Source of the DNA: Centroscyllium fabricii
Taxonomy: Eukaryota
DNA length: 64,000 nucleotides
Direction: 5' to 3'
Assembly: GCA_051313645.2 (NCBI GenBank)
Contig: JBNRSN020000001.1
Location: 337,714,001 to 337,778,000, forward strand
Below are positions 1,538 through 32,260 of this stretch, piece by piece; position 1 is the first letter of the stretch; every line of letters starts with the position of its first letter. The position numbers were made by a program, and so were the translations under genes. The notes under the pieces were generated by a model. That model saw only the letters and a list, made by a program, of their open reading frames with translations, did not search any database and was not told the DNA's origin.

Positions 1538-1666
1538 CTGACGAACGGTCTTCAGCCTGAAACGTTAACTGTTTCTCTCTCCACCGATGTTGCCTGGCCT
1601 GCTGAGTTTCTCCAGCGTTTTCTGTTGTTATTTTGGATTTCCAGCATCCGCAGTATTTTGCTATTG
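1538..1666 (+). mobile_element. Penelope-like element terminal fragment with degenerate hammerhead motif
   Basis: CTGACGA..GAAACGTTAACT followed by the same terminal sequence that follows the endonuclease-coding remnant at 25503-25994. Confidence 0.75.
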
Positions 1667-2073: not shown

Positions 2074-3508
2074 AATAATAACAGAAAACACTGGAGAAAC
2101 TCAGCCGGCCAGGCAGCATCGGTGGAGAGAGAAATAGAGTTAACAGGGGGAATTTTTCCGGAAGGGCGGGAACCTGGCGGGGATTGGTCGGGGCGGCTTC
2201 TGGTCCCGCCCACCCAACCAGCTGGGAAGGCCATGCAATTTTAGGTTAATGAGGTCGTTAAATCCCCGCCGGCGGCAGCGGCAGGTGATTAGGTGAATCG
2301 AGTCGGGCTGCAGCAGAGCTGCGAGCACTTTGATTCACAGTTCCAGTACTGGTTGTTGTCAGTTCCCATGGCAACACTCCACTGTGACAACACTCCACTG
2401 TGACATCACAGTGGAGTGGAGCCAATGTGAAAGGCCAAGTGCTGGTGACTGACAGGTGGGCGGGTGGGCTCCGAATCGCTCACAGCTCGCACCAGCTGAG
2501 AGGCCATTGTGGGAACTGAGATTGCTCAGTTTCTGGTCTCAGCTGATATTGAAGGCAGAACGGAGGTACTTACTCCTCTAAGGTGCTGGAGGCATGCCAA
2601 GCATTTGGCAGCATGTCCTTCAGACCTTAAAGGAGAAAGTAATAAATTCAGGAACTCACACAACACCAGGTTATAGTGCAAAAGTTATAACCAGCGCTGT
2701 GCTCCCGCGGGGTTTCACCCAGTGGGGTTTAAGGTGGCGGGGTTAGGGCAGCAAACAGCGCAAAATGGCTGAGGGCCCTTAAAATGGCATTAAAGAGGCC
2801 AATTAAGGGCCCTTAACGAGGTGACAACCCATCCCCGCCGGTCGGCTGCGGGAAGGTTTCGGGGCAAGGAATCTGGGGGCGGGAAAATGAGAAAGCGGCG
2901 CGGATCTGGCGGGACCTGCCGGTTCCGCTATTTTGCCAGCCCGGCCACCCAAAACCCCGCCTCACGGGGACATGAAAATTTCCCCCAACGTTTCAGGTCG
3001 ATGACCTTTCTTCAGAACTGGAGAAGCCGGCAGGGGGGATAGATTTTAAAGCTCATAGGGGCTGGGGAAAGGGGATAGGAGGGGGGGTGAAAGAACAAAG
3101 TTAAGATCAGGAACAGGCTAGAAGGCGGGGCAGATGAGATATTAGGAGAAATTCTTATATCCCCCGCCTTCTAGCCTGTCGCTGATCTTTCCTTTGTTCT
3201 TTCTGCTCCCCCCCCTCCCCCCTTTTCCCAGCCCCTACTAGCTTTAAAATCTAGCCCCCCACCCCTCCCCGGCTTCTCCAGTTCTGAAGAAAGGTCATCG
3301 ACCTGAAACGTTTTGTTTTCTGTTCCCTCTCAGGTCCCCCTGCCTTCCTACCCGTTTCATTTCCTGGCTTTTGTCTTGACAAAGGGTCCGAACCCGAAAT
3401 GTCAACTCTATATATTTCTCTCCATGGATGCTGCCTGGCCTGTTGAGTTTCTCCAGCATTTTCTGTTGTTATTTTGGATTTCCAGCATCTGCAGTATTTT
3501 GCTATCGT
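2074..3508. mobile_element. Penelope-like fold-back element (2074-2144, 2987-3312, 3370-3508) interrupted by a DNA element
   Basis: Inverted arms 2987-~3140 and ~3160-3312, each with CTGAAGAAAGGTCATCGACCTGAAACGTT; terminal sequence shared with the 7267-7806 element. Confidence 0.8.
2145..2986. mobile_element. Non-autonomous TIR DNA element, PIF/Harbinger-like (copy 1)
   Basis: Ends (A)GGGGGAATTTT ... AAAATTTCCCCC with a 3-bp AAC duplication (2142-2144, 2987-2989); homologous to 20934-23142. Superfamily inferred from GGG termini and the 3-bp TSD. Confidence 0.65.
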
Positions 3509-3604
3509 AATGAGGTGCATGTTGTAGTGAGTGTCCCATAACCTAATACACAATGCAGTAGGAAAGGTCAGCAGCCACCTTAAAAATAGTAATTGGACAG
3601 GGAG

Positions 3605-5653
3605 CCTTATAAAAGCATTTGCAACTATCTTCAGCCAGAAATGCCGAGTGGATGATCCATCTCGGCCTCCTCCTGAGGTCTCCAGCATCAGATGCCAGTC
3701 TTCAGCCCATTCAATTCACTCCAAGTGATGTCAAGAAACGGCTGAAGACACTGGATACTGCAAAGGCTATGGGCCCTGACAACATTCCGGCAATAGTACT
3801 GAAGACTTGTGCTCCAGAACTAGCTGTGCCCCTAGCCAAGCTGTTCCAGTACAGCTGCAAAACTGGCATCTACCCAGCAATGTGAAAAATTGCCCAAGTA
3901 TGTCCTGTCTACAAAAAGCAGGACAAATCCGACCCGGCCAATTACCGTCCCATCAGTCTACTCTCAATCATCAGCAAAGTGATGGAAGGTGTCATTGACA
4001 GTGCTATCAAGCGGCACTTACTCAGCAATAACCTGCTAACTGACGCCCAGTTTGGGTTCCGCCAGGGCCACTCAGCTCCTGACCTCATTACAGCCTTGGT
4101 CCAAACATGGACAAAAGAGCTGAACTCAAGAGGTGAGGTGAGAGTGACTGCCCTTGACATCAAGGCAGCATTTGATCGAGTGTGGCATCAAGGAGCCCTA
4201 GCAAAGCTGAAGTCAATGGGAATCAAGATGAAAACTCTCCATTGGTTGGAATCCTACCTAGCACAAAGGAAGTTGGCTGTGGTTGTTGGAGGTCATTCAT
4301 CTCAACCACAGGACATCACTGCAGGAGTTCCTCAGGGCAGTGTCCTAGGCCCAACCATCTTCAGCTGTTTCATCAATGACCTTCCCTCCATCATAAGGTC
4401 AGAATTGGGGATGTTCGCTGATGATTGCACACTGCTCAGCACCATTCGAGACTCGTCAGATACTGACGCAGTCCGTGTCCATATGCAGCAAGACCTGGAC
4501 AACATTCAGACTTGGGCTGGCAAGTGGCAAGTAACATTCGCACCACACAAGTGCCAGGCAATGACCATCTCCAACAAGCATGGGCAGCACAGCATGGTGG
4601 CATAGTGGTTAGCACTGTTGCCTCACAGCGCTAGAGACCCGGGTTGAAATCCGGCCTCGGGTGACTATCTATGTGCAGTTTGCACATTCTCACCGTGTCT
4701 GCGTGGGTTTCCTCTGGGTGCTCCGGTTTCCTCCCACAGTTCAAAGATGTGCGGGTTAGGTTGATTGGCCATGATAAATTGACCCTTAGTGTTAGGGGGA
4801 TTAAATAGGTGGGGTTATGGGGATAGGGTGGGATATGTGTCGGTGCAGGCTCGATGGGCCGAAATGGCCTCTATATGTACTGTAGGGATTCTGTGATTCT
4901 GTGAAGCGAGACTCTAACCATCTCCCCATGACATTCAATGGCATTATCATTGCTGAATCCCCCACTATCAACATCCTGGGGGTTACCATTGATTGGAAAC
5001 TGAACTGGACCAGCCATATAAATACTGTGGCTACAAGAGCAGGCCAGAGGCTGGGAATTTTGCGGCGAGTGTCTCACCTCCTGACTCCCCAAAGCCTTTC
5101 CACCATCTACAAGGCACAAGTCAGGAGTGTGATGGAATACCCTACACTTGCCTGGATGAGTGCAGCTCCAACAACACTCAAGAAGCTCGACACCATTCAG
5201 GATAAAGCAGGCCGCTTGATTGGCACTCCATCCACCACCTTCAACATTCACTCCCTCCACCACCAGCGCACTGTGGCTGCAGTGTGTACCATCTACAAGT
5301 TGCACTACAGCAACTCGCCAAAGCTCCTTCAACAGCACCTTCCAAACCCGCGACCTCTACCACTTAGAAGGACAAGGGCAGCAGACGCATGGGAACGGCA
5401 CCACCTACAAGTTCCCCTCCAAGCCACACACCATCCTGACTTGGACCTGTATCGCCGCTCCTTCACTGTCGCTGGACCAAAATCCTGGAACTCCCTTCCT
5501 AACAACATTATGGGTGTACCTACACCATATGGACTGCAGCGGTTCAAGAAGGCAGCTCACCACCATCTTCTCAAGGGCAATTAGGGATGGGCACTAAATG
5601 CAGGCCTAGCCAGCCAGCGACACCCACTTCCCATCAATGGATATTAAAAAAAA
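3605..5653 (+). mobile_element. 5'-truncated CR1/L2-group non-LTR retrotransposon (RT domain with stop/frameshifts)
   Basis: KAMGPDNIP, QFGFRQGHS, LDIKAAFDRVWH, GVPQGSVLGPTIFSCFINDLP and MFADD RT motifs; A-rich tail near 5650; interrupted by a SINE. Confidence 0.93.
4581..4903 (+). mobile_element. tRNA-derived V-SINE (HE1-like), short CR1 tail type
   Basis: A/B-box-like head (TGGCATAGTGG, GGTTGAAATCC), V-domain GTTTGCACATTCTC..GTGTCTGCGTGGGTTTCCTC..GGTGCTCCGGTTTCCTCCCACAGT, GATTCTGT tail repeat; AAGC duplication in the host LINE. Confidence 0.88.
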
Positions 5654-7336
5654 GGATGGGATGTAATATCACAAATTATTTTTAAAATTATGATGAGCCT
5701 TGTAGAAAGGGTTTGTTTGGTCAGCACATCTATAATCAAGAATATTTGGATTGCTCACTGTTGGCTACAACTTTCACATCAAGATATCATTTTTTATGTT
5801 GGCTATCAGTTACATTTTGGGGGACAATTTTAACTGAAGATCAGAATGCTCGGGTGGTCTAATCTGACAGTAGTAACGCATTATTCTTAAAAGCTTTTCT
5901 TTAATTGAGAGATATGTAACAATTAAAATGCATTTCAAAAGGCAGGCAATTTCTATATACTATTGTTGTGAAATACTGCCAGGCAGGCACTTATAAGATG
6001 TTAAAAGGTTTATTAAACATTTTCAGGATCTCTTAACATGAAAATGTTTCACATTGTCGGAACTTAAAATGGAGCCTTTTTTTTCCGATTGGGACTACCT
6101 GTTAAGAAAGAGATTTAAAGCAATGAATAACTTCAAGGCAAAGGACCACAATCAAAGAGAGGGTTGAAGAAGTGCTAAATTGTTACCGAGCCTGTGTTAC
6201 CAGAATACAATTAACATATGCAAATACTCAATGAAACCAGACCTTTGACAAAGTGAAGAGCAAATATTTAAATCATTTTACGACAGGAACAGCTCCAAAT
6301 GTCTTATCAGCATGGGAGCTTTATCCATTTTATCTCATCAAAGGGGGCTGACAGTTTAGTTGGATGCTCCGTGGGAAGCCAAATGCCCAGATCTTCAAAG
6401 AATGATAGTGTCAACCAGATCTGATCCAGGATCAGTTAAACATACTTTCTAAAACAATTGGCATTCCCCAAATGCTTGCAACTTTAAGTAGAACCAAGTT
6501 AATCTTTCAAGAGCTTGATATATATTTTATGTACCACATTCCATACAAAAAGGACTTAGAGTAACTGCGCATCTTTTCTGATACTTTCAAAGTTAAAGAA
6601 TGCCTCATATTTAAGTTTGTATCTGCTTTCAAAGCTTCACAGCATCTTCCCCAACCAGGGTTTACATGCAACAAACCGAAGCTTCATTTGTTTTTCTGAA
6701 TAGAAAACCTCAAGGAGAACAAAGATTTAAATGAAGAGGATTAATTACCACACAGCATTTTGTTTCGAAATAGTTGAAAATCAGTTCTAAAACAGAAGAG
6801 GTGTATACGCAATTGTCTTTAACCAAAAGGGTGAAAAAAAGAATAATTTTAAGCAATGCAACAATGAGTAATGTGAACTTGATACACATGGGGGAGAAAT
6901 GCAGGAACTAAACTTTGTCTGTACGAACATATCCTATTGCATTTTTAGACAGTGACGCAAAACCCTACTTTTAAAGCCATCAGATTGTCCACATACTTTA
7001 TTAGAAACAAGTGGTGCAACTGGACAGATCACATTATTACTCATAGTCTTGAACATCTACATTTAATTCCCAGCATTTACATTTTTGTTTCAGATAGCAC
7101 TCTGCTCCCCTCTCTCTATGTGCAGTTTTCCCACCATTTTTAAAAGCACTATTTATAGGCTTAAAACAACACCTTTAGGACCAGGTCAATGGGCTTTTTT
7201 GGACTAATAGTAATTATTCCAGGACTTAAACTCTTCAGACTATTACAATGAAAGGAACAAAAAAAAATCCAAAATAACAACAGAATATGCTGGAGAAACT
7301 CAGCAGGCCAGGCAGCATCGGTGGAGAGAGAAACAG

Positions 7337-7373
7337 AGTTAACGTTTCAGGTCGATGACCTTTCTTCAGAACT
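7337..7373 (-). ncRNA. Minimal type I hammerhead ribozyme motif (sense to LIN28B pre-mRNA)
   Basis: AGUU-CUGAAGA-A-AGGUC-AUC-GACCU-GAAA-CGUU-AACU: stem I AGUU/AACU, core CUGANGA and GAAA, 5-bp stem II, palindromic stem III. Confidence 0.75.
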
Positions 7374-7672
7374 GGAGAAGCCGGGAGTGGGGGGGATAGA
7401 TTTTAAAGCTTGTGGGGGCTGGGGAAAGGGGGTGGGAGTGCTGAAAGAACAAAAAGAAAGATCAGCGACAGGCTAGAAGGTGGGGGAAGGTAAGAGACAT
7501 TAGGAGAAATTCAAGGAACACAGGATGGCTCTAATTTCTCCTAATGTCTCTTGTCTCCCCCGCCTTCCAGCCTGTCGCTAATCTTTCCCTTTGTTCTTTC
7601 AGCACCCCCCCCTCCCCTGCCTTTCCCCAGCCCCTACAAGCTTTAAAATCTATCCCCCCTCCCGGCTTCTCC

Positions 7673-7709
7673 AGTTCTGAAGAAAGGTCATCGACCTGAA
7701 ACGTTAACT
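7673..7709 (+). ncRNA. Minimal type I hammerhead ribozyme motif
   Basis: Same motif as 7337-7373 on the opposite strand. Confidence 0.75.
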
Positions 7710-8984
7710 CTGCTTCTCTCTCCACTGATGCTGCCTGGCCTGCTGAGTTTCTACAGTGTTTTCTGTTGTTATTTCAGATTTCCAGCATCCGCAGTATTTT
7801 GCTATCAAAAAGAAATCCAAGGTATGATAAAATAGTAACAGCTTGATGTATCTTTCCTCCAATAGCCATGTTTAATTTCCACAATATACTACGTCCAGTT
7901 AAAAGAAAATGAACTGTGTCCATTTGCTTAACAGATTTATAAAATTAAATATTTTTTTGAAACTCAGCAATTCACACATATTAAAACTGTTTACCATGCT
8001 GATCAAACAACAGTTATCAAAATGTCATTGCAAAATATGACATTTTATGAGCTGGCTATGTCAGATCTACAAATTAAATTGTGATTTACAATTTCCTATA
8101 GTTTACCTTACAAAAGCCAGTAGCATTAAGGCAACACAGAAGGGCCAATGTTCGCAACAAAAATCAATAGATTGAATATACTGATTATCTCTGCTGACCA
8201 CAACAGTATTTTTACAATACATTCAACCATCTTGATGATATGTTTAACCCCACTTGAAATCAACATGTCAGGATCACATTCTCACTACGGCCATTTTTGC
8301 GTTTTCCCCTCATACCCAAACCAATAGTAAAGCACACTCAGCATCGCGATCATTAGATCAATCATTAACAATGTTTCTTAGTAAATTGTCTAGAAAATAA
8401 ATTAGTAAATTAGAAATGTAATCTTTCAAACTAGTTTAAAACTATAAAATACCTATTTTTTTTACACACTGAATTATAAAGTCAATCCTATAATCAATAA
8501 ACCTTTCTTCTAAAAAAACATTTTAGAGGTACATAACGATCACACACAATGTATTTCCCCCTTTTTGAAGATAAAAGCATTTCTAGTATATTTTAGAATC
8601 CAGATAGTCACAATTGATAGTTTTAAACAATGTAATCAAAATTTCCATTCAAAGTCAGGAGCTGCAGCAAAGTGAAAATGAATGACTGTGTAATATAACC
8701 TTTCTTACATTGTGGCACAGTTGTACTTTTGCAGATCTGTACACTTCTTGGTTTTGTCAACGTAAGACTTTAAACTGAACTTAAGTAGGTTGTGATCCCT
8801 ACTTATCTGAGAACCACAAATCTCAAAATTAACGTCTCAAATTCAAATATTTTTACATTTCCATGACTTGTGGAGAAATACTAGTGGAATCTCTCCACTG
8901 GTGTGTCACATCACAAATCACCTTCAACAGATTGAGAGGGAGATTACAAAAATTAAGCCCATCATTTATGGGCGGTGGATACAA

Positions 8985-9177
8985 GTTCATTGAATATATT
9001 CAAGAAGGAGCTGGATGCATTTCTTAATGCTAGAGGGATCAAGGGATATGGGGAGAAGGCAGGGACAGGGTATTGAGTTTGGATGATCAGCCATGATCTC
9101 ATTGAATGGCGGAGCAGGCTCGAGGGGCCGAATAGCCTACTCCTGCTCCTATCTTCTATGTTTCTATGTTTCTATGT
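8985..9177 (+). mobile_element. CR1 3' tail fragment
   Basis: GATCAGCCATGATCTCATTGAATGGCGGAGCAGGCTCGAGGGGCCGAA plus (TTTCTATG)n tail, as at 62520-62650. Confidence 0.88.
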
Positions 9178-9654
9178 AAAAATGTATTTTTCCAGTTTAA
9201 CTACTGCACACATTATGAATATGTTGTGGTTAGCCAGATCATATGTTAAACATCTCCAATCATGAAGAAACTCTAAGTAACCCATCAATACTTCACTCAT
9301 GAGTTATCTGGTCAGCCTTTCTTTTGGAGACAATTATCATATTTTGTGCCTTGACAGCATAGATCCCCTTTCTGTACAATAAATAAAAATGATAATCAGA
9401 TGTAAATATAAAACACACAAATACAAGAGGCAGTCAACAGATTATATAAATATACTAAAAACTGATGCAGTCATTCATTTACAGTATTAAGATATATTTC
9501 ATTATACATTCCCAGTTATTTATGATGTTTTTGTTAAAGGCTGCTAATTTATCAGTATTTACTAGCTACTTCCAATATTACATTGTAATATAATGTAGAA
9601 TTGTTTGAAAATGTTAAAATCTACTTTTAAAAATCATTCTTGACTTGTGCGGTG

Positions 9655-9975
9655 TTGGTTGATCTCAGCTGGGTACCAATGGCCTAAGTGACCTCTTGGT
9701 TGAAGATTGTGGGGGGGAGGGGGCGTGCGAAAATTGTCGAAGCATCCCATGCCTGATCATTATCCAGTAACCCCATCTAAAGTTTTGCTTTTGTACAATC
9801 ATGGGAGGACAGAAGTGGGGTTGGCCATGATGCCTTTCATAGTTGGATAGCCTGTTGGCACTCAATGTCTAAACATAAATAATAGATATTCTGGGGTGAT
9901 ATCAGGGTGCCTTGCACCAGTGGATCCATACCACAGCAAGGGGTCAATGCCTTTAGGAGCTGAGGAGAAGGGAGG
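9655..9975 (+). mobile_element. Old, diverged SINE-like repeat (family unassigned); related copies near 34960-35240, 46950-47460, 49800-50070 and 59240-59390/60432-60540
   Basis: Diverged shared blocks (CCTGAT..TATCCAGT, ATAGCCTG.TG.CACTCA, ATGAAGAATGGCC, TGCCTTCAGGAG) recur across these loci. Confidence 0.5.
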
Positions 9976-10611
9976 GACAGGGAGAACAATTGCAAAGTAA
10001 ATTAGCAAGAGAAAACTAAATATCTGAAATGGAAGTTTACACTGTTATATTTTAAACTAACCTTTCTGTTTTTATCCTTAATATTAGCAGATTTAGAAAT
10101 AATTGATGTCTGATATGTTGCTTTGTAGCCAATCTTTGGAGTCAAAGATTGCTTTTCAATTTGAGTAACATCTCTTGTGGTGTTTAGTGATATTGTCTTG
10201 TTGTGTTTAGTGTTATTTTCATACACTATCAGGGCATTATTTTAGCATCATTCAAGGAGGATCATTTACTATTAAGTGTAAGATTGAAGTGCTGAAAAAA
10301 ACCCACTTCCAAATATTTCAAAAAGTTAAGACATTTTGACAAGTTGCAACTAAACCACACATCGCTGTCTGAGTTTTTCTTGAAGCTTAATTCCGCAGGT
10401 TTCCTTTACAGGTATAAATTGAGTACACTTATTCAATACACAACTAAACTTCAATCATTCTGTATGCCACACCATCAATGCAGCTAACAATTTTTCAAGC
10501 TGCTTTTTTTAAACTAAAGGCCAAGAATCAGTACATTGTTTAAAAGACAGCTACTGCCAAAATTAAAAACTTCAGAAAACAGCTGGCCCAAACCTCTCTC
10601 TAGACCATAAA

Positions 10612-10722
10612 GAAAAGACTTGCATTTATATAGCACCTTTCACAACCACCGGACATCCTAAAGCGCTTTACAGCCAATGAAGTACTTTTTTGACGTGTAG
10701 TCACTGTTGTAATGTAGGGAAT
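10612..10722 (-). mobile_element. Deu-domain SINE / L2-type 3' tail fragment
   Basis: Reverse complement of the tail at 39890-39988. Confidence 0.75.
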
Positions 10723-12559
10723 ATTTCATAGAAATAAAGCAAGTTTGAACATCAAACCATGAGCAAGTGTATAAAGCTTGAACTTCAAAATCAAAATCTA
10801 TTTCATCCGCACAACTTAACTGAGAATGAATATAACCAAAGCAAGTTTACATGAATTATTTGAAAACTAATTGGTGTTTGATTGAGACCACAACGATTAG
10901 GGACGTGTCAAAGAAATGCAAATGATATTCAACAGCAGGTGCACACTTACACCATAATAAATCGGCTGAGATTCTTTTCTGGCTGTTTACATCTTACAAT
11001 AGAAGATTTTTTTAATTACTCCTAGAACAATTTATATATTAAAATATAGTTTTGTATAGTTGGTAACCATTAATTCAACACTCAATTCCTCACTCCCTTG
11101 ATCTGTTTATACTGCAACTGACTGAGAAATTCACATAAATAATGCATAGTTTCTTTTACTCCATCAATTTTAAGATATTAAGTCTAACTACAGGTGGTTT
11201 GTTGGTCATAGATTCAGTGAAGTCTTGTGCAAGACGGTAGCATAAAGGGTGTTTGAAAACTTGGAATTATTTCATTCTCATGAAGAAACATTGAACTATT
11301 CACCTTTTCTAAAATAAGATTACATTTTCCTTTCATTGTCCCTCATGTGATTTTACCTCTGAAGCTATTAAGACGCATTTTTAAACGGTACACAATTGGA
11401 AAATGCAACTATACTTTTTTTAACTGCTCTTTTCATCGCTGTGATGTAGAATACATGTCAAAGAACATACAATGATCGCTCAACATAAGCCTTACAGTAA
11501 TGACAATTACCACAGATCTGACAAGAGGCAAGTTTTTTTTCCACCAGCACTGAATTACTTGAACAAGTAGAGGCTCTAAATGCACTTGTGGAAATGTGTA
11601 TGTCACTGTGTTAGCTAACAATGTTAACAATCTCAGAGCACAAGTGGACGAGAATGTATTTAATTATATAATTCGCAGAACACGCTGGATAAATGTAAAT
11701 TTATTTAATTTGCTAAAATCAGATGCAACAAATTCCAACTAAAGCCCATTGGAACTCCTGGCCAGGGTAACAAGGAAGCTGAACATACATGGGGCAGCAT
11801 ACCTAAAACAGGGTAATAACCGGGTGGAAACCTCCCTTACTTCAATATTTAATTTTAATGATTCAAATCGTTGCCAATAAACAAATACATGCGTGCAAAA
11901 GCGATTTGCTGCCTTATAAACCGCGAGCGCGTCATTCAAACGGGAGTCGAACCAGTAAACACTAAACACACGCTGAGCTTGAACCACAACCAGGTAAAAG
12001 TTTCGTGTTTTTTTTTAAAATGCTAATTTTACGCGTTGCGATTAGATTCGCGCGAAGAAACGTGGACCGAGGGGGTGAGACTTGAATGGAGATTGTAGCC
12101 CGGGTCTGCCCGGTGAAAACTCCCTGCCATGGGAGCAAGAGGATGCGACCAACTCCCCCGAAAACGCGTTTCTCCCCTGTCCTGGCGCTGTATTCGTCTA
12201 TAAAACAATCTTACGAGGTCGTAAACCCCTTACTTAACGACCCAAGGAAGGTTTAGAGAGAGACAGAAAAGAACTTTTAAATACAGACACAAGTATAGAA
12301 AACAAGCATGGGCACGGAGCGCTGGGACCCAACACAAGGGCAGATTGTGCGGCTTGTGGCCACAAACCAGTCTGAGTCCCCTCGCCTCCCCCAAAATGAT
12401 ATTTCACATATTCAAATCTGTTTACCGCCAATTATGGGAGGCAAATGACTGCAAAGTGTATATAATTCTGTGTGTATAATTCTATGTATTTAATTCTATG
12501 TAAATGATTGTGTATATACCAATTATGTGTATATACCAATTATTATGTGTATATCACTG

Positions 12560-13147
12560 TGTATATATCAACCATTCTGTGTATATATCAACCATTCTGT
12601 GTATATATCAACCATTCTGTGTATATATCAATCATTCTGTGTATATATCAGTCATTCTGTGTATATATCAGTCATTCTGTGTATATATCAATCATTCTGA
12701 GTATATATCAGCCATTCTGAGTATATATCAGCCATTCTGTGTATATATCAGTCATTCTGTGTATATATCAGTCATTCTGTGTATATATCAGTCATTCTGT
12801 GTGTATATCAATCATTCTGAGTATATATCAGTCATTATGTGTATATATCAGCCATTCTGAGTATATATCAGCCATTCTGAGTATATATCAGCCATTCTGA
12901 GTATATATCAGCCATTCTGAGTATATATCAGTCATTCTGTGTATATATCAGTCATTCTGTGTGTATATCAATCATTCTGAGTATATATCAGTCATTATGT
13001 GTGTATATCAATCATTCTGAGTATATATCAGTCATTATGTGTATATATCAGCCATTCTGAGTATATATCAGCCATTCTGAGTATATATCAGCCATTCTGA
13101 GTATATATCAGTCATTCTGTGTATATATCAGCCATTCTGTGTATATC
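12560..13147. repeat. 20-bp minisatellite (TATATATCAGCCATTCTGAG/TG), ~29 units, in LIN28B intron 2
   Basis: 20-nt periodicity is directly visible; degenerate units extend left to ~12460. Confidence 0.97.
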
Positions 13148-13975
13148 ACTGTGTGGATTTGATTCTGTGCATCGTAAGAAGCCAATCATTGATCGCACAG
13201 TGGGCAGACATCCTGCATCTGAAGGTGCTGCAATTATCAACAATCCAATCCAAGTTTCTTTTAATAAACTATTTGCTCCTCCAGAAATCTTCCGAGGCCA
13301 ATCGTCACACAATAAAGCGGGAGAAAAGGGGAACCTTTCTCTTGCACTCCCCGAGTTTTGCAAGAAAACGCCGTGGAATAAATATCACGGTGGCGGTTTT
13401 AAAGCTTTCAGTCTTTCGGAAGGGGACTGTATATTGCAACAAACGCCCCTCAATATTTCCCTGTACCAAACATGCAACAGTCTTGAGTCTAGCATTTCCG
13501 GGTTTCACCTCTGACCTTGACAAGCAGATCGTTATTGTGATATTTTTGCGCCGGCAGGGAACACCAATTGCCATGTGGATGGCGTTTTCCTTTAAACTTC
13601 GCTCATGCATCAGACTTTCTCCGTCGCTTTTTCATCCGCCACCCAGTAAAAAATTATTGTATGCAACAAAAAAGTGTATTCAGCCAGGCAATCATGAAAC
13701 GGTTGACTACAACCTCCCGCTATCTGGTTTCCAGAGTTACACCACTCCAGATTGGCGAAAGGGAGGGGGGCACAGCACAGCACATATGAAACGTGAATGA
13801 AATGGGATGGGAGCCGATTCCAGCTCCTACCGTACAATCCAGAACATTTACACCAATTGCGCGGGTTTTTTTTTTACAATTGAGCTTTAACTATTTCTCT
13901 ACAGACAACCCCTCCCCCTTCCAAAAGCAAAACATTTGTTTTATGAATGAAACTGGCGGAATTATGCAAACTTAC

Positions 13976-14157
13976 TTGGTGTACGAAAACATCGACTGGC
14001 GTCTCCAAGGGGGTGCCTTCCCGAGAGGTCATGGAGATAAACCCGAATCCCATCCTGACGTTGAACCATTTACAGTGGCCTGCTCCCTGCTGGAGCTGAG
14101 ATTCGTCTTTCTCTGTTAATTTTCCTTTTTCGTCTCCACCACCTTTACCCGTCCCTC
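13976..14157 (-). CDS. LIN28B: LIN28B coding exon 2 (N-terminal part of cold-shock domain)
   Basis: Translates (G)GTGKGGGDEKGKLTEKDESQLQQGAGHCKWFNVRMGFGFISMTSREGTPLETPVDVFVHQ, the LIN28 CSD signature with a LIN28B-type N-terminus. Flanked by pyrimidine tract + CAG acceptor (14160-14158) and GTAAG donor (13975-13971). 182 nt, phase 1 in and phase 0 out, as in vertebrate LIN28B. Confidence 0.96.
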
Positions 14158-14931
14158 CTGGACAATTGCGAACACAAGAGGGGAGAGAGAGAGAGAGAGG
14201 GGAGGAAAAACAAGGTTTCAATTGATCTGACGGAAAAGAGGGGATGGGGGGGGGGAGTGGAAATCATTAACAAAGTACATTTAAAAATAAGCTTCTGAAA
14301 GAAAGCACTTCACACATCGACATGGACATTGGCTGAAGCCTATATGGCAAAGCCATTGTAATATCGATTCTGATCCATGTGCAATCCTCCTTTACTCCAT
14401 GTTTGAGGCAGCAAATTACGATCAGCAAACCGTACGTAACTGGAATAGGGCTGGTTTAAAACGGAGCCCATCGCCCGCAGAAACCAGTGTCACACACAAG
14501 CCCGGCTATTCTCCACAAATCGTCATCAACATTCAACAGCGCCGATCGCCAGAGCTCTTTTTTTTGTATTGCTGTGCTCGAACCAGCTTCGTATTTCTGC
14601 TGAAGAAAACTACTGTCGCGTCCAGCGTGCGTCCTCCGATCAAACTTAAGGGGCAGGTGTACAGTGTGTGTTGCCCCCTTCCCCGCACACACACACACAC
14701 ACTGGAGAGAGCGAGCGAGAGAAAACTGTGCTTAATCGGACACAAACAGTCCACACAATAGCCCTCAGAAAGCCTTTGAAGTTGTGAATAAATGGGGGGC
14801 GGGTACATACATTTTGGGAGATCTACAACAATGGGTTTGGAAAAGCCCCCCTTCTGCGATCTCTTAAAAGTATGCAGCCCAAAAAAAAAAGGATTTTTTT
14901 TTAAACAAAAAGAGAGAGAGAGAAATGTAAC

Positions 14932-14941
14932 CTTCGGCCAT
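14932..14941 (-). CDS. LIN28B: LIN28B coding exon 1 (ATGGCCGAAG, MAE-G)
   Basis: CAAC-ATGGCCGAAG|GT on the minus strand; the phase-1 donor joins exon 2 in frame to give MAEGGTGKGGG, matching the LIN28B start MAEGG. Confidence 0.92.
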
Positions 14942-15190
14942 GTTGTCACACAGGCCCCTGTGTCCAAACCCGCCCGATGAGAACTTTTTCCTTGGAATGG
15001 GTAATCTTCGGCATCAATCTAGCGTCATAGGGATCAAACATTTAGCAATCGCCAATGCTCACATGGTCTAACGTTAGAGTGTCCCCTCCCTCCCTCCCTG
15101 GCACACACGTGACTCGTCAATTACATGCCTTCTTGCCGCTAATTACACATCGCAGGCTTTCCAGAGGCAGAACAGAGCCAATCGGCCGCC
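14942..15190 (-). promoter_or_regulatory. LIN28B: LIN28B 5'UTR and proximal promoter with E-box (CACGTG 15106-15111) and CCAAT box (15178-15182)
   Basis: Minus strand reads AATTGACGAGTCACGTGTG...TTAGACCATG...TAGATTGATGCCGAAGATTAC...CAACATGG, resembling the mammalian LIN28B 5' end as I recall it. The motifs are directly visible. Confidence 0.75.
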
Positions 15191-17897
15191 CCTCTAACCT
15201 GTCACCGCATTCATCGATGATTCAAACCACCCCCCCCCCCCACCCCCCAAAAAAAACCTCCCGATTTTTTACCCAGCTAATTTGTCCGACATTTTTGATG
15301 AACCGGTCAGCTCGATACACTTAAAGCCTCAGGGTTTCTTCCCCCCGTTGTTTTGCTTTCTGTGGGGAACGTCAAGCTAATGCAACATATACTAACCACA
15401 GATCAACTGTTATGATAAACACGATTATATATAAACTGACAATGCTGTGTGTGAATTTATTCGCAAATCTCGACAGTTCACACATCGCTGGCAATAATCC
15501 TATGTAAATATTGTTAATGCAGTGAAGAGTTGTGAATGTAATATTCTGATTTTATATAATTATATATAGTTAAATATAGGAAGGACAGATTTTTAAATTG
15601 TGCAAAAGGAGTCCCGGGCATGTCGCCGACGGTTTTTTTTATTTAGTAACATTCAGGAGAAGCTCTCCACACAAAATAATCAAAGATCTCACAAAAGATA
15701 TTGGATACTTTTCCTTCCGAGTAATAAACGCGAGCGGAGAGCGGCGGCTTTTGTGCCGCCGCCTTAAAGCAAGGTGATACCATTTGAATGTAAGATGTCA
15801 TTTTTTTTTAATGATCTCCGTTTAAACTATAAAACGGTTCATCAATCACACAAGCCATACTTGATGCCTTTATTTCAGAATGAGGATTCCAGTGACGGTG
15901 TCTTTTGCAAGCATTTTGGGCAGTGTTGGCTTTTAAGGCCACATGTACCCAGTTTTGAAAGTATATATATATATCATCAACACTAAAGATGATTAGTCTT
16001 CTCCCACATGCGACTTTCCCTCACTTTTTGTTAAAAGGAAATGCCCCTTCCAAAGGGGTTCAAAGGTCAAGCATTTGCTTCATTGCTCCTGTTGTTATTT
16101 TGAAATACCTTTACATTTGGCGTTTGGAGGAGAAATGTGCAAGGCTCTCTGAAAAGGGGATGGTAAAAGTTGGTGTTCTAGGAAGGGGGGGGAGGAAAGT
16201 GGCCGATTTTACATTGTTTGCTATGCATTGTCGATTACCATGCGTTTTACTCAAAAAAAAACTGGCCTGACGTGTCGGCGCCAACTAGTCTGACCAATTG
16301 TAAGGGGCAGTTTGCGCTTAAAGGGCTTGTTTACTGTTCTAACATCAGCGTCTTAAAAGTCGCAAACATTTGCTTTCGCACAACGTGCACTTTTGTCCAC
16401 CTAAAGTGCGCTGGTCAAGCATCGCAGGAGGTTTGGGGCAGATTTTTTTAACGGGTTAGGGGAGGGTAGAGAGAGAACAGCCTACTAACTCGCAGTCCTG
16501 AAATTCCTTTGAAGTCTTCAACCGTAAATTTCCTATAGGTTATTTCAACAGAGCGTGAGTTGAGGTCCAATCTCTAAACCGACCTAAAATGGTTGCGTTT
16601 GTTGGCTCTGTGATCACTCTCGTCTCTTTTTTCTCTCTCTCTCCAGTGTTTCCAGTACCGCTTTGTACCAGGCCATCGATTGAATTTAAAACCATCAAAT
16701 CTTCAAAAAAAAAATCATGCTGCGGTCCCCTACACGTTTTACAAATAACCTTTCATTTTACTACGATTACTTGCGCCACGCAGCCACATGCAACCAAGAA
16801 AAGCCCACATGCCCACCGTTTCCAAAAGAATGATATGTGCCTGCCTTCTGCAAAAGATGTAAGTGCACTTATTCCAAACAAAGACACGAAAAACAATCGA
16901 AAGGCACCAGTTTATTTGCAAACGCCCAATGAGTATATGGGGGTCGAAGTTGGTATTTTATTCGTGACGCGCGCCTCAGACAAGTTAAGGATACTTTTAA
17001 ATTCTTGAAATTCTTAAAGTCCCCGTTAACAGAGCAAATGGGCAATCTTTAAACGGGGGGTGGTGTTGAAAGCTTTCAGTTTTACTGAGTGCGCAATGCT
17101 TCCCGAAACTCATAAATGAACCTCCCTCCCCCCCAATAATTACAAATCGATAAAGTCAGCTAGCATAAATACAACTGATAGATCCCAGTTTCTCCTTTAA
17201 TATTTGATCCTCCGACTGCGGGCGGCAGAAACGGCTGTTTCAGGCTTTTCCTCGTATTAGGAGAATTAAGATCGGGTCAGCAGAGTGGTCACTGGGTGTC
17301 AGATGTTATCGAGTCATTCATTTCCTGTGCGAGGACATCAGCCTTTCAAGTCATGCAAAGGTATAGCTTTGGTCAGCTGGGAAGCCCACATCCCAGCTTT
17401 AGCCCATTCAGAAACAATCAGCCAAGTTGTTCTTTATAAAGAAAGCTTTTTTTTTTAAAAACGCAATTCTTTAACAAAATACAAAAAAAAACACAGCTTA
17501 GAGAATGTAACCGGCTGCAGCAAGCAGTTTCCCAGTAAGCCTTTATGTGCTTGCTCAAAATAACTTTTTAAAGTCTTTATTACACGTTTCTCACGTTTCT
17601 TCCTGAAAGATCCGACTTGAAGATAAAAAGTTTAAATTTTTTGCTGAAGTCCCCCACCATAAGCTTCACATTCTGGAGCCTCGACCTTACCCGGCGAGTG
17701 TGCCTTGACCAGCCAGCAAGGAGGCATCGTCTTTCGGAGGTCCTATTGAGAAAGGTCTCGGTCTCTTGGGCAAACGCTGATTTTTTTTTCTCTCTATCGA
17801 ATTCAGTATTGTGGGTATAATTAAACCCCAAAAGCAATTCGTCAGATCAGATTTAGGTTTCGTCGCGCCGAAGAAAACTACTCGGCGTTTCATTTTA

Positions 17898-18177
17898 AAC
17901 ATAGAAGATAGGAACAGGAGTAGGCCATTCGGCCCCTCGAGCCTGCTCCTCCATTCAATGCGATCATGGCTGATCATCCAAACCCAGCACCCTGTCCCTG
18001 CTTTCTCCCCATATCCCTTGATACCTTTAGCTCTAAGAAATATATCTAACTCCTTCTTGAATATATTTAATGACCTGGCCTCAACTACATTCTGTGGTAG
18101 AGAATTCCACAGGTTCACCACTCTCTGGGTGAAGAAATTCTTCCTCATCTCTGTCCTAAATGGCTTACCCCTTATCT
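17898..18177 (-). mobile_element. CR1 LINE 3' end
   Basis: IRGKPFRTEMRKNFFTQRVVNLWNSLPQ plus CR1 tail. Confidence 0.92.
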
Positions 18178-18239
18178 GCTGCATCTGCTTTTTGTTTCAA
18201 CAAAATGGGCTTTGTGCGATTCAAGATCTATAAAGGAAT

Positions 18240-18578
18240 AACTTGCATTTATATAGCGTCTTTCAGGAGCTCAAGATGCCCCCAGAGCGCTTTACAGACA
18301 AGGGGAGCACTATTGAGGGGTTGTGATGTAGGAAACGCAAACATCAAGTTCACAAAAACAGCAATGAGATAATGACCAGATAATCTGTTTGAGTGATATT
18401 GGTCGAGGGATAAACATTGTCCAGGACACTTGGGCAACTGCTGCCCCTCTTCAAGACAGTGCGACCTGAGAAGGTAGATAGGGCCATGGTTTAACGTCTC
18501 ATCCAAATGAAGGCACCTGGGACAGTGCAGCACTCCCTCGGTTCTGCGCCTGGATTATGTGCTCCAGTCTCTCGAGTC
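18240..18578 (-). mobile_element. Deu-domain SINE (SacSINE1-like), diverged
   Basis: Reverse-complement similarity to 39530-39988. Confidence 0.7.
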
Positions 18579-18950
18579 CATGGCCTCGCTCCTCCCTATC
18601 TCTGTAATCTCCTTCAGCCCCACAAACCCCCGAGATATCTGCGTTCCTCTAACTCTAGATCTTGAGCATCCCTGATTATAATCGCTCAACTATTGGTGGC
18701 CATGCCTTCTGTTGCCCAGGCCCTAAGCTCTGTAATTCCCTGCCTAAACCTCTCTGCCTCACTACCTCTCTCTCCTCCTTTAAGATGCTCCTTAAAACCT
18801 ACCTTTTTGACCAAAATTTTGATCACCTGCCCTAATTTATCCTTATGTGGATTGGTGTCAAATGTTTTGTTAAAATACCCCTGTCCAGCGCCATGGGAGG
18901 TTTTACTACGTTAAGGCGCCATATAAAAATTCCAGTTGTTGTTGTTGTTG
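18579..18950 (+). mobile_element. L2-type LINE 3' end
   Basis: HGLAPPYLCNLLQP..LRSS motif, WNSLP-like block, (GTT)n tail. Confidence 0.75.
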
Positions 18951-19455
18951 GAGTAGGGCTCTGACCTGCGACCTCCTGATTCCGCTCCCACTGAGCAAGA
19001 ATGACACCCAAATATAAAGAAAACGCAACACACGATACGTTTAATAACGATTAGCTTTCATAGCACTTCCATCATTTAATGATAGGTCAGTGTCCATGAT
19101 GGATATTTTCAGAAATTGGAAAGAATATGTAGATTTAATCCGCAACATTACCATATTGCTAAAGCACCCATTTTAGAGCCTTGTTTATGCACAATTCGTT
19201 GCGATTCCTGCATCTTCGGTTGAAATGAAAGTTCAGAAGAATTATATTTAAAATTATAAATGGAAATATTTACCTGTTATTTATATTTATAAAATATAGT
19301 TTGGTATTTACATCAGTTTTTTAAATTAAAATACATGCGGGAGACTTGTTAGATAAAACGAATCCACTAAAATCGAATTTCCAACTATTCTCAATGTGCG
19401 GCATTGACTCGCCAGGGGATGTGAGTTAACAAGTGATTCGGATACTTCATTAGTG

Positions 19456-19780
19456 NNNNNNNNNNNNNNNNNNNNNNNNNNNNNNNNNNNNNNNNNNNNN
19501 NNNNNNNNNNNNNNNNNNNNNNNNNNNNNNNNNNNNNNNNNNNNNNNNNNNNNNNNNNNNNNNNNNNNNNNNNNNNNNNNNNNNNNNNNNNNNNNNNNNN
19601 NNNNNNNNNNNNNNNNNNNNNNNNNNNNNNNNNNNNNNNNNNNNNNNNNNNNNNNNNNNNNNNNNNNNNNNNNNNNNNNNNNNNNNNNNNNNNNNNNNNN
19701 NNNNNNNNNNNNNNNNNNNNNNNNNNNNNNNNNNNNNNNNNNNNNNNNNNNNNNNNNNNNNNNNNNNNNNNNNNNNNNNN
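19456..19780. other. Assembly gap (325 N)
   Basis: Run of N. Confidence 1.
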
Positions 19781-19967
19781 TTCACTATTTAGGGTGGTAT
19801 TAGTCACATACTTAGGATTTTACCAGACGACCGATGATAAGGCTTTGGCTATCCCTTTTTTAAAATCCCTTTCTAAGTAAAATTTACATCTGCCAGATCA
19901 GCAGCACCTCTTCATTCGAAATGATTAATCTTAAATATAAACTAACAATGGAGTTCTCCATTGATAG

Positions 19968-20095
19968 GATAGCAAAATACTGCGGATGCTGGAAATCCGA
20001 AATAACAACAGAAAACGCTGGAGAAACTCAACAGGCCAGGCAGCATCAGTGGAGAGAGACAGAGTTAACGTTTCAGCTCGATGACCTTTCGTCAG
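19968..20095 (-). mobile_element. Penelope-like terminal fragment with hammerhead motif
   Basis: Minus strand CTGACGAAAGGTCATCGAGCTGAAACGTTAACT plus the conserved terminus. Confidence 0.8.
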
Positions 20096-20933
20096 CCCAT
20101 AGATGATGGCTGGTGACGGATTAAACGTTAAGCGTGTGCTTTAGACACCCAAAAATATTCAATCTTTAATCTGATAACAAATCGAAGCGATTCTCTGTAA
20201 AAACACATTTTGAATTGTCATTGGAACGGATTGAACAAGAGGTGAGCGCCTTTCTCAAGTGAAGTGATGGCAGCGTGTATTTTTAAATGGGGGGTGGTGA
20301 CAAACCGACCCGATCAACCTTGCCTGATTATGGAGGTGTTTACAGCAGTTCGACTCAAGTCCAGCAGACTTTCTAGTTTGTGTTTGCAGTTTTCAAACAC
20401 AGTTCCAGTCTAGAGCGATCGGACATGCGACTATCTCGCGCCTCAATTCCATTTTTATTGGTTTAAGTGGCAAATCAAGTGTCACGCGGACCCGACCAGA
20501 CAGTAAAGTCCCAAAATGTGGTTCAACGCAACATATTTCGTTCTATCGAAACGGAAATGATTCGGTCGCGTTTAAATAAAACGTCGTCGATTGGGGTTGC
20601 GTTTCATCGTGGCCGGTCGTTTGTTACAGGCTGTTCGATAGTCCCAGGTTTGGGGGCAGTAATCACTTCACAAAGCGTCTTTTGTTTTAATTGAAAACGA
20701 CCAACGGAGGGGGGAAAACAAATTAAACTTTATTTGACATACAGCGTGGATCCCGTTAAGATCAGGAATCAACCATTCTGAATGCCGGGCGGTGGTTAAT
20801 TATTTATATATTTGATATAAATTAACATCTGTTTGACTTAATGCCTTGGGGTTTAATCCCACTACAATAACAGAAAACGCTGGAGAAACTCAGCCGGCCA
20901 GGTAGCATCGGTGGAGAGAGGAACAGAGTTAAC

Positions 20934-23142
20934 GGGGAGATTGGAAGGGCGGGAACCTGGCGGGGATTGGTCTGGGCCGCTTCAAACAGCTGGGAAGGCC
21001 ACTCAATTTGTTTAATTAGGTTGTTAAATCCCCGGGCGGCAGCAGGAGGTAATTAAGTCAATCCAGTTGGGCTGTAGCAGGTCTGCTAGGAGTTTGATTG
21101 ACAGTTCCAGCACTGGTTGTTGACAGTTCCCATGGAAACACTCCACTGTGATATCACAGTCGAGTGGAACCAATGGGAAAGGTCAAGTGCTGGTGACTGA
21201 CAGGTGGGCGGGCAGGCTCCGAATCATTGACAGCTCGGCACCTGCTGTGAGGTAATGTGCAAAGCTGAGATTTCTCAGTTTTTGCTCACAGCTGGTGCAG
21301 CAACCACAGAGTTACTTACTCCTCTAAGGTGCTGGAGGCATGCCAAGCATTTGGCAGCATGTCCTTCCCCACCTTGAAGGAGAAAGTAATGACCAGCACT
21401 GTGCTCCCGCTAGAGCGGGGTTTAAGGTGACAAGGCAAAATGGCTGAGGGCCCTTAAAATGACACTAAAAATGCCAATTAAGGGCCCCATACGAGGTGAC
21501 AACCATTCCTGCCGACCGGCGGCGGCGGCAAGGTTTCGGGGCGGGGAATGATGGGGGGGCGGGGAATGATGGGTTGGGGGGGCGGGGAATGATGGGTGGG
21601 GGATGCGGGGAATGATGGGTGGGGGGGGGCGGGGAATGATGGGTGGGGGGGGGCGGGGAATGATGGGTGGGGGGGGCGGGGAATGATGGGTGGGGGGGGC
21701 GGGGAATGATGGGTGGGGGGGGCGGGGAATGATGGGTGGGGGGGGCGGGGAATGATGGGTGGGGGGGGCGGGGAATGATGGGTGGGGGGGCGGGGAATGA
21801 TGGGTGGGGGGGGCGGGGAATGATGGGTGGGGGGGGGGCGGGGAATGATGGGTGGGGGGGGGCGGGGAATGATGGGTGGGGGGGGCGGGGAATGATGGGT
21901 GGGGGGGGCGGGGAATGATGGGTGGGGGGGGGCGGGGAATGATGGGTGGGGGGGGCGGGGAATGATGGGTGGGGGGGGGGCGGGGAATGATGGGTGGGGG
22001 GGGCGGGGAATGATGGGTGGGGGGGGCGGGGAATGATGGGTGGGGGGGGCGGGGAATGATGGGTGGGGGGGGCGGGGAATGATGGGTGGGGGGGGCGGGG
22101 AATGATGGGTGGGGGGGGCGGGGAATGATGGGTGGGGGGGGCGGGGAATGATGGGTGGGGGGGGCGGGGAATGATGGGTGGGGGGGGCGGGGAATGATGG
22201 GTGGGGGGGGCGGGGAATGATGGGTGGGGGGGGCGGGGAATGATGGGTGGGGGGGGCGGGGAATGATGGGTGGGGGGGCGGGGAATGATGGGTGGGGGGG
22301 CGGGGAATGATGGGTGGGGGGGCGGGGAATGATGGGTGGGGGGGCGGGGAATGATGGGTGGGGGGGGCGGGGAATGATGGGTGGGGGGGCGGGGAATGAT
22401 GGGTGGGGGGGGCGGGGAATGATGGGTGGGGGGGGCGGGGAATGATGGGTGGGGGGGGCGGGGAATGATGGGTGGGGGGGGGCGGGGAATGATGGGTGGG
22501 GGGGCGGGGAATGATGGGTGGGGGGGCGGGGAATGATGGGTGGGGGGGCGGGGAATGATGGGTGGGGGGGAATGATGGGTGGGGGGGGCGGGGAATGATG
22601 GGTGGGGGGGGCGGGGAATGATGGGTGGGGGGGGCGGGGAATGATGGGTGGGGGGGCGGGGAATGATGGGTGGGGGGGGCGGGGAATGATGGGTGGGGGG
22701 GGCGGGGAATGATGGGTGGGGGGGGCGGGGAATGATGGGTGGGGGGGGCGGGGAATGATGGGTGGGGGGGGCGGGGAATGATGGGTGGGGGGGGCGGGGA
22801 ATGATGGGTGGGGGGCGGGGAATGATGGGTGGGGGGGCGGGGAATGATGGGTGGGGGGGCGGGGAATGATGGGGGGGCGGGGAATGATGGGTGGGGGGGC
22901 GGGCGGGGAATGATGGGTGGGGGGGGCCGGCGGGGAATGATGGGTGGGGGGGGGGGCGGGCGGGGAATGATGGGTGTGGGGGGGCGGGGAATGATGGGTG
23001 GGGCGGGGAATGATGGGTGGGGGGGGCGGGGAATGAAAAAGCGGCGGGGATCCTGCGGGCGAGGTCGGGACCCGCCGGTTGCGCTATTTTGCCGGCCGGG
23101 CCGCCGAAAACCCCGCCTCACAGGGACATGAAATTGACCCCC
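20934..23142. mobile_element. PIF/Harbinger-like non-autonomous element (copy 2) inside a Penelope terminal fragment (20866-20933, 23143-23161)
   Basis: Colinear with 2145-2986; GGGG...CCCCC ends; AAC duplication at 20931-20933 and 23143-23145. Confidence 0.65.
21539..23037 (+). repeat. G-rich ~23-bp minisatellite (GCGGGGAATGATGGGTG6-9), ~60-65 units
   Basis: Directly visible; G-run length varies between units. Confidence 0.97.
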
Positions 23143-23298
23143 AACGTTTCAGGTAGACCTTTAATTCTACTATATGGTTGGCGCTTCGGTCCCTTTAAAT
23201 CTCGCTGTTTCTGATTTTGATCGAGGTTCCCTGGGCCACAACACATCGGCAAAGAGCTTTAAGATCAGGGACGTAACCAGCCTCTCGAACATGTGTCC

Positions 23299-25502: not shown

Positions 25503-25994
25503 GGCCTCTTGCATTGTTCCACGGAAGCTCAGCGTAAACTCGAGGAACAGCACCTCATCTTCCGATTAGGCTTCAGCCCTCTGGACTAAACATAGAGTTC
25601 AACAATTTTACATCATAACCTCGGCCCCTACCACACTTTTATTTATATATTTCTCTTTTCTCAATCCACACTTTCGTCTGGGCTTTTTTCTTTACTCTGT
25701 CAGAGCCGTTCACACCTATCCAGAGCCATCCTGTGTTCCTTGAATTTCTCCGAATATCGCTTATCTGCCCCGCCTTCCAGCCTGTTTCTGATCTTTTCTT
25801 TGTTCGTCCAGCCCCTACAAGCTTTAAATCTAACCCCACCCCCAACCTTCCCGGCTCCTCCAGTTCTGACGAAAGGCCATCGACCTGAAACGTTAACTCT
25901 GTTTCTCTCTCCACCGATGCTGCCTGGCCTGCTGAGTTTCTCCAGCGTTTTCTGTTGTTATTTGGGATTTCCAGCATCCGCAGTATTTTGCTAT
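25503..25994 (+). mobile_element. Penelope-like element 3' portion: GIY-YIG endonuclease C-terminus, UTR, hammerhead (25862-25898), terminus
   Basis: GLLHCSTEAQRKLEEQHLIFRLG/QPSGLNIEFNNF (small deletion) is a characteristic Penelope ORF end, followed by CTGACGAAAGGCCATCGACCTGAAACGTTAACT. Confidence 0.88.
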
Positions 25995-32123: not shown

Positions 32124-32260
32124 CAGTTCTGACGAAAGGTAATGGAGCTGAACCGTTAACTCTGTTTCTCTCTCCACAGATAATGCCTGACCTGCTGACT
32201 ATTTCCAACATGTTCTGTTTTTATTTCAGATTTCCAGCATCCACAGTATTTTGCTTTTGT
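32124..32260 (+). mobile_element. Penelope-like terminal fragment with decayed hammerhead
   Basis: AGTTCTGACGAAAGGT..GAACCGTTAACT plus terminus. Confidence 0.75.

Follow-up and report, generated by a model that had tools for sequence, protein, structure and literature searches.

Independent insertions of Harbinger-like elements at the predicted hammerhead site of Penelope-like repeats in Centroscyllium fabricii, probably guided by target sequence

In the excerpted text of PMC4482050 the PIF/Harbinger group is defined by a target-site duplication (TSD) of TWA, and the zebrafish member Harbinger3_DR, as the accessible part of PMC3016246 has it, uses a 15-bp palindromic target with a CWG TSD. 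A build of two open reading frames (ORFs), one for a transposase and the other for a Myb-like protein, marks an element as Harbinger-like in the sections at hand of PMC9179366; the same sections report no Harbinger in the elephant shark and call for a check of other cartilaginous fish. Dada transposons have TSDs of 6-7 bp and insert specifically in multicopy small-RNA genes (PMC8869645, in its available portion), and the minimal hammerheads of Penelope-like elements lack stem III, contain a CG palindrome and have one more base ahead of stem II (PMC4209133, likewise in part). Here, we analyze a window of 64 kb from Centroscyllium fabricii (positions 337714001-337778000 of contig JBNRSN020000001.1, our C1; genome of 7.21 Gb) in which two non-autonomous Harbinger-like elements, MITEs A and B (MITE, miniature inverted-repeat transposable element), interrupt two copies of a Penelope-like 3′ repeat at the identical base of a predicted hammerhead.

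Both inserts are non-coding and each is flanked by AAC on its two sides (Table 1). A first-pass annotation of this DNA had reported the same element twice at one base with a duplicated AAC, and the coordinates and junctions are as it gave them. The visible divergence that it noted amounts to 15% of aligned columns with the minisatellite of B excluded, where random family pairs differ by ~9%, and among 109 family rows none is farther from A than B; minus the minisatellite, B holds ~730 bp of element. It described a GGGGG end; 30 relatives compared place the true termini at six G and six C, the outermost G of A being A and one of its terminal C being T. Read on the minus strand, that of the ribozyme, the duplicated triplet is GTT, the predicted NUH triplet, and it coincides with the predicted cleavage triplet because the core numbering puts the cut after GUU. 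The insertion interrupts the predicted ribozyme in cis: in A the 3′ stem I strand (2138-2141) stands apart from the core (2987-3015), with the duplicated triplet dividing the two. The earlier claim that stem I is split from the catalytic core therefore describes A but not B, whose host ends ~20 bp past the insertion site and carries no CUGANGA.

The same base is occupied far beyond the window. The 20-mer right end of the family has 3,849 matches in the genome, and at least 298 of these adjoin the hammerhead site, 176 with the core-side flank next and 122 with the 3′-side flank next; both orientations are thus present, and there is no surplus of 3′-side junctions. Sixty loci fetched from both flank searches all contain the host on the matched side, in several host subfamilies, and 18 of them have a transposase beside the end, while full-length coding copies (L201-L203) sit in the hammerhead site between AAC and AAC. 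When a host anchor was searched together with any Harbinger-type end within 12 bases, 7,355 matches were obtained, against 24 for the control; 30 loci were fetched, and 24 of them, of at least 10 end types, have the insertion at the GTT site. Short copies, 5.3-5.5-kb copies with transposase and Myb, and other Harbinger-type ends all use the site. Repeated independent insertion at the hammerhead base, thousands of times across the genome, is supported by these data. At least 4-7% of host sites are filled (missed ends uncorrected), and for this reason two filled hosts in one window are unremarkable: the chance of two among its ~9 host copies is 0.07-0.4 at 5-15% occupancy.

Why this base? In an unbiased sample of 92 position-ordered right ends on contig C1 (92 of the 100 matches listed), 9 lie at the hammerhead site (95% interval 4.6-17.8%), a variant host has 2 at a second site, and the remainder lie elsewhere, which leaves ~90% of family copies outside the hammerhead site and ~8-10% on one base. 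The target profile was learnt outside Penelope, with host flanks and flanks with an extra leading C excluded, and the site weights come from 161 non-host ends after removal of 6 flanks that were other element ends. The resulting profile, SANAY-WWW-RTNTS, is palindromic, holds ~6 bits and has a purine two bases further out; its commonest non-host half-site is GTTTC (15/167). Applied to an empty host, it ranks GAAAC-GTT-AACTC at the top with a weight of 61-167 times the average, followed by TGT (7-10) and TCT (5-9). Among the matches listed from the anchor search (100 of 7,355), 70 fall at the exact main offset, ~5 at TCT and 3 at offset-12, and the secondary offsets seen are the two secondary sites that the outside profile predicts. 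It is thus a supported proposal that the exact base would be set by the sequence preference of the element, the overlap with the cleavage triplet arising because the core GAAA-C spells the preferred half-site.

We consider it probable, at roughly 0.72, that the Harbinger-like insertions are independent and guided by a target preference that the GAAAC-GTT-AACTC of the predicted hammerhead matches best. In this reading, a related element with transposase and Myb protein likely moves the non-autonomous element into the abundant Penelope 3′ repeat, its palindromic preference happening to be matched best by this conserved sequence. Purifying selection on the ribozyme core would keep a near-invariant target in ~70,000-140,000 copies, and a further, element-wide factor would lift insertion at Penelope ends to 4-30 times what the profile gives; this factor would most likely combine non-additive half-site recognition with ease of access to Penelope copies of like age. 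Splitting of the ribozyme would then be a by-product, in mostly truncated copies. There is also a second, weaker hot spot: ~8 of the 16 non-host AAYGTTTCY insertions lie at one position of another repeat, which we take to be a CR1-like long interspersed element (L224, L226, L232, L233, L237, L246, L247, L223).

The host repeat fits the features of Penelope-like minimal hammerheads, with cutting predicted after GUU. Its minus strand reads AGTT-CTGANGA-A-AGGTC-ATC-GACCT-GAAA-C-GTT-AACT, and the fold predicted for an empty copy has an open core besides stems I and II. The layout is that of a minimal type I hammerhead, with CUGANGA...GAAA, an extra base before stem II, the CG palindrome, UH, and stems I and II; the 89 cores were located by the core pattern, so that the core is present in them by construction, while the pattern has no bearing on stem II or on stem I (AGTT/AACT). 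Like the Penelope-like hammerheads in the excerpted text of PMC4209133, it has CUGANGA, the additional nucleotide before stem II, GAAA-CG-UH, a short stem I and no stem III, and it shares with them the head-to-head pairs; in longer copies it lies downstream of an ORF that may be one with reverse transcriptase (RT) and GIY-YIG, as theirs is. It differs in the first stem II pair, which in 10 copies is AU in 5, GU in 2, GC in 1 and unpaired in 2, mostly A-U or G-U instead of G10.1-C11.1; a transposon insertion at the site is unmentioned in that portion of the source.

Longer host copies reach 5′ into a decayed ORF, with a GIY-YIG-like C-terminus ~300 bp before the core. Pfam GIY-YIG (PF01541) scores E 2.8e-4 and 21.6 bits in one of three decayed ORFs, slightly below the cut-off of 22.6; among 12 longer host loci as printed, 8 show the motif region. 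A YIDD-type RT motif was seen by eye in the ORF of L329; a Pfam RT search of the decayed host ORFs returned no match. The exact empty-host 17-mer has 53,422 matches in the genome, and from this count and the densities in non-random samples the number of host sites was taken as 70,000-140,000. Host copies are ~88-90% identical pairwise, and most are short 5′-truncated fragments.

Some further observations concern the host. Fold-back junctions centred between AAC and GTT (GAGTTAACGTTAACTC) make up 2 of 11 host matches in the flank stretches L340-L349, so that inverted insertions of Penelope itself also seem to break at this point. In a single case, that of host A, the inverted Penelope arm stops precisely at the predicted cleavage point, GAAACGTT; the arm abuts a different Penelope variant (3313-3510), possibly with T-rich microhomology. 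The stem II DNA AGGTCATCGACCT (2995-3007, and in other hosts) is presumably one base off an IR1-type nuclear-receptor element, and a factor bound there could feed the unexplained excess of insertions considered below.

As to the elements, 40 scored copies of 7,290 MITE A candidates are 88-92% identical and have 3-bp TSDs of varied sequence; MITE copies are ~91% identical. Within the sample of 92 ends, a MITE-type left end is in reach in 39 and in none of the other 53, in many of which a transposase begins ~600 bp inside. Seventeen of 20 extended ends reach the left end of a coding family, nearly all with 3-bp TSDs; its copies measure 5.1-8.5 kb including nested inserts, and mostly 5.3-5.5 kb. 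They carry two opposed ORFs, one with Myb_DNA-bind_5 (PF13873, E 3e-8, above cut-off) and one with DDE_Tnp_4 (PF13359, E 1.4e-35), and we infer that the MITE is mobilised by this coding family or a close relative. The search for an autonomous partner through the terminal inverted repeats (TIRs), as the first-pass annotation had proposed, yielded a coding family with related ends, a candidate partner. With 72,583 DDE_Tnp_4 candidates genome-wide, many of them having long open frames, Harbinger-type transposases are very strongly expanded. In L044, L110, L014 and L105, family ends are stacked end to end with a triplet between them, which looks like repeated insertion at a used site, and in L312 the GTTGTT ahead of the element is a doubled triplet, possibly a re-used excision footprint.

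Several results weigh against insertion guided by the measured preference, or against parts of this account. Use of the hammerhead site is 4,000-10,000-fold above the genome average. Outside the host, the half-site rates give 154 x 2.2 = ~340-fold, or ~900-fold if the outer positions add 2.7-fold (background densities from a non-random sample of 0.66-0.96 Mb); the controls behind them are AAYGTTTCY (29 matches, 13 of them mutated hosts), NNNAACTCV (13, 7 of them hosts) and NNNGTTTCY (224). Thus, a 4-30-fold excess over the measured preference remains unexplained, and the host number that enters it is itself an estimate from the exact 17-mers and non-random samples. The CR1-like repeat with the same right half has ~8 insertions in 3,849, roughly 4-20-fold less per copy by crude copy estimates. 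Hosts and Harbinger copies are not co-localised in the sampled flank stretches, and inverted host pairs show no link with insertion (7/49 filled against 7/24 empty, p 0.20, small samples). The hammerhead has no Rfam match at E up to 1, where only hairpin-driven microRNA matches below gathering score and 5S-like matches appeared, and covariation among 10 host copies is not above shuffles, with 79.5% of cells paired and the best value at slide 0. Lastly, the MITE resembles the coding family at the ends only (84-86% over 63 bp, 71% over ~280 bp), and the exact autonomous partner is for this reason unproven. The excess looks element-wide and not specific to the base, since the secondary host sites are used in about the ratio of the outside profile. 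It could stem from non-additive half-sites, from a misjudged host number, or from host (~88-90%) and MITE (~91%) being of similar age; core integrity, inverted pairing and co-localisation do not account for it. A CpG at the site finds no support as its cause, only 1 of 16 non-host AAY flanks being AAC.

Two alternatives would do away with independent insertion. The first-pass annotation had offered a composite Penelope/Harbinger unit amplified as one piece; retrotransposition or homing-like conversion from filled to empty copies would be the means, and the two window copies do share orientation, start point and a rare host variant. The shared start point is real, but it is a common Penelope 3′ end, which also terminates 9 of 17 other filled hosts with readable flank. 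The shared variant CTCAGCCGGCCAGG is real as well, but as a host polymorphism it is minor, with 2 cases among the 100 matches listed first out of 28,875 in the genome: it occurs in three empty hosts elsewhere (once in L344, twice in L357 on another contig) and is missing from 41/41 other filled hosts. It was accordingly dropped as a marker of a composite, and we put its presence in both window hosts down to chance or to local kinship of the hosts. A composite is further opposed by the use of the site by 5.5-kb coding copies, by the many element types and host subfamilies, and by the 176 and 122 junctions in the two orientations, which lack the 3′-side surplus expected from 5′ truncation. A FastTree tree of 110 MITEs (65 non-host, 45 host; near-full-length and at least 80% identical only) needs 35 changes of the host label, where shuffled labels average 35.3; same-orientation host copies are never sisters (23/23 and 20/20 changes), and the closest host-inserted pair stands at 0.046, the closest non-host pair at 0.042. 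In the comparison of inserts with hosts that had been recommended, the two sets of distances are uncorrelated (Mantel rho 0.11, p 0.18, n 43). Because the tree is star-like (9/107 branches starred), it speaks more strongly against a later joint amplification than against one at the burst, but amplification right at the burst is disfavoured in its turn by the missing surplus of 3′-side junctions. We regard a composite as very improbable. Even less credit is due to a single local duplication, which the first-pass annotation had named as what would overturn its reading, together with unrelated flanks at most copies. Most copies do lie elsewhere, and the window copies are 18 kb apart in one orientation with the shared variant, also present nearby in L344. 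Yet inserts that differ by 15%, well above random pairs, reject such an origin, as does the similarity of A and B, which ends at the host ends: the outer flanks are unrelated, and the host parts differ at ~5/70. Composite, homing-like conversion and local duplication are thus set aside on the orientation counts, the tree and the Mantel test.

It is harder to dismiss the other idea of that annotation, a transposon that targets Penelope ribozymes as a safe harbour and disables them. In such a scheme, Harbinger lineages would read more than the 13-mer and would have evolved to use Penelope ends, the possible cues being a longer motif, the adjacent palindrome of stem II or a protein on Penelope ends, much as in Dada. 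The residual excess and the convergence of many end types on the hammerhead site agree with it, and the former keeps a weaker form of targeting open. We nevertheless think it unlikely: 83 of 92 ends lie elsewhere, the base is predicted by the outside profile, the secondary host sites are used about as that profile predicts, which makes the excess element-wide, and a safe harbour would be little needed in a 7.2-Gb genome. Repeated independent insertion at the base is what survives of this claim. Its disabling part is unsupported: intact cores are no more frequent in filled hosts than in empty ones (21/30 against 6/9, small samples), and the host of B lacks a core altogether. As most hosts are, besides, short 5′-truncated fragments, a selective role is not shown. 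It is similarly doubtful that a whole Harbinger-like clade with a determinant beyond the 13-bp site is steered onto the Penelope ribozyme core, and breaks it, across genomes.

Insertion guided by sequence preference, then, has to be placed among the described systems. The elements have the 3-bp TSD and the short, G-starting TIRs of PHIS (Harbinger-like) transposons, and the coding family has the DDE_Tnp_4 transposase and a second ORF with a Myb/SANT-like domain. TTA and TAA make up only 11/167 non-host TSDs, and the TSD set is also unlike the CWG of NuwaI and the ANT of Pangu. As TWA, CWG and ANT all fail to describe them, the elements are not filed under any TSD-defined PHIS group. Judged by the accessible text on Harbinger3_DR, the likeness lies in a 3-bp TSD within a longer palindromic target, in half-sites that both start GT-N-T and in the two-ORF build, here in the coding family; the TSD here, however, is A/T-rich and variable (AAA, ATA, TTT, ATG, TAT...), not CWG, and the preference is looser (~6 bits), with one multicopy repeat taking ~8-10% of insertions. 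With Tourist-like MITEs, mobilised by PIF/Harbinger in the excerpted text of PMC2836001, A and B share short non-coding build, G-starting TIRs, 3-bp TSDs and ends of a coding family. They differ from them in not being restricted to TWA, in their ~840 bp, and in that simple deletion from the coding family identified would not yield them (71-86%, ends only). Like Dada in the part of PMC8869645 at hand, they are DNA transposons recurrent at one base of a multicopy RNA-coding repeat; unlike Dada, they have a 3-bp TSD and a DDE_Tnp_4 transposase, and with 9/92 at the site there is no strict targeting. Papers describing Harbinger insertion in Penelope hammerheads did not turn up in our literature search, whose coverage of subscription journals and Repbase reports is thin.

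Table 1. Features of the two filled hosts and of empty comparison copies in the window.
Feature	Positions	Strand	Remarks
Host copy A, 3′ end, Penelope-like	2074-2144	-	predicted stem I 3′ strand (2138-2141); left TSD AAC (2142-2144)
MITE A, non-autonomous Harbinger-like, 842 bp	2145-2986	.	ends (G)GGGGGAATTTT...AAAATT(C)CCCCC
Right TSD AAC (2987-2989) and core side of predicted minimal hammerhead	2987-3019	-	same fold as empty copy
Predicted hammerhead parts at A	2987-2994; 2995-3007; 3009-3015; 3016-3019	-	GAAA-C-GUU; stem II; CUGAAGA; 5′ stem I strand
Penelope 3′ untranslated arm (to ~3153) and inverted second arm (3154-3312)	3020-3312	.	second core ends at GAAACGTT
Empty comparison: head-to-head pair of Penelope 3′ repeat	7265-7805	.	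two uninterrupted sites
Host copy B, 3′ end, Penelope-like	20864-20933	-	left TSD AAC (20931-20933)
MITE B, diverged subfamily of the element of MITE A	20934-23142	.	same orientation as A; different starred clade
G-rich 23-bp minisatellite within MITE B, 64.7 copies	21553-23036	+	expanded from subterminal G-rich motif of the MITE
Right TSD AAC (23143-23145) and host B remnant	23143-23162	-	GAAAC, damaged stem II, no CUGANGA
Empty comparison copy for site-weight profile	25866-25994	+	
Further empty comparison copy	1538-1664	+	
Further empty comparison copy	19969-20095	-	
Further empty comparison copy	32129-32260	+	

The window has a few other features. The 1.5-kb minisatellite of MITE B looks G-quadruplex-capable. 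A CpG-rich, unique-looking stretch (20300-20850), possibly a promoter or CpG island, lies directly left of host B. Repeats with 5S rRNA-like heads recur, at 50831-50947 (38.5 bits, just above gathering) and 28541-28656 (27.6 bits), and are probably short interspersed elements derived from 5S.

What the locus presents is sequence-guided, independent nesting of Harbinger-like elements on the Penelope ribozyme site, a known behaviour in a new variation, with a TSD outside all TSD-defined PHIS groups. It is a measurable case in which the catalytic constraint of one mobile element, its invariant hammerhead core, makes the dominant landing site of another, and it supplies thousands of natural insertions usable for mapping the target choice of Harbinger. 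Annotators are warned that repeated nests of this kind are not composite elements. The finding also leaves a defined, testable excess; should that excess reflect genuine targeting, a second strategy of the Dada type would be in play, directed at the ribozyme of a retroelement.

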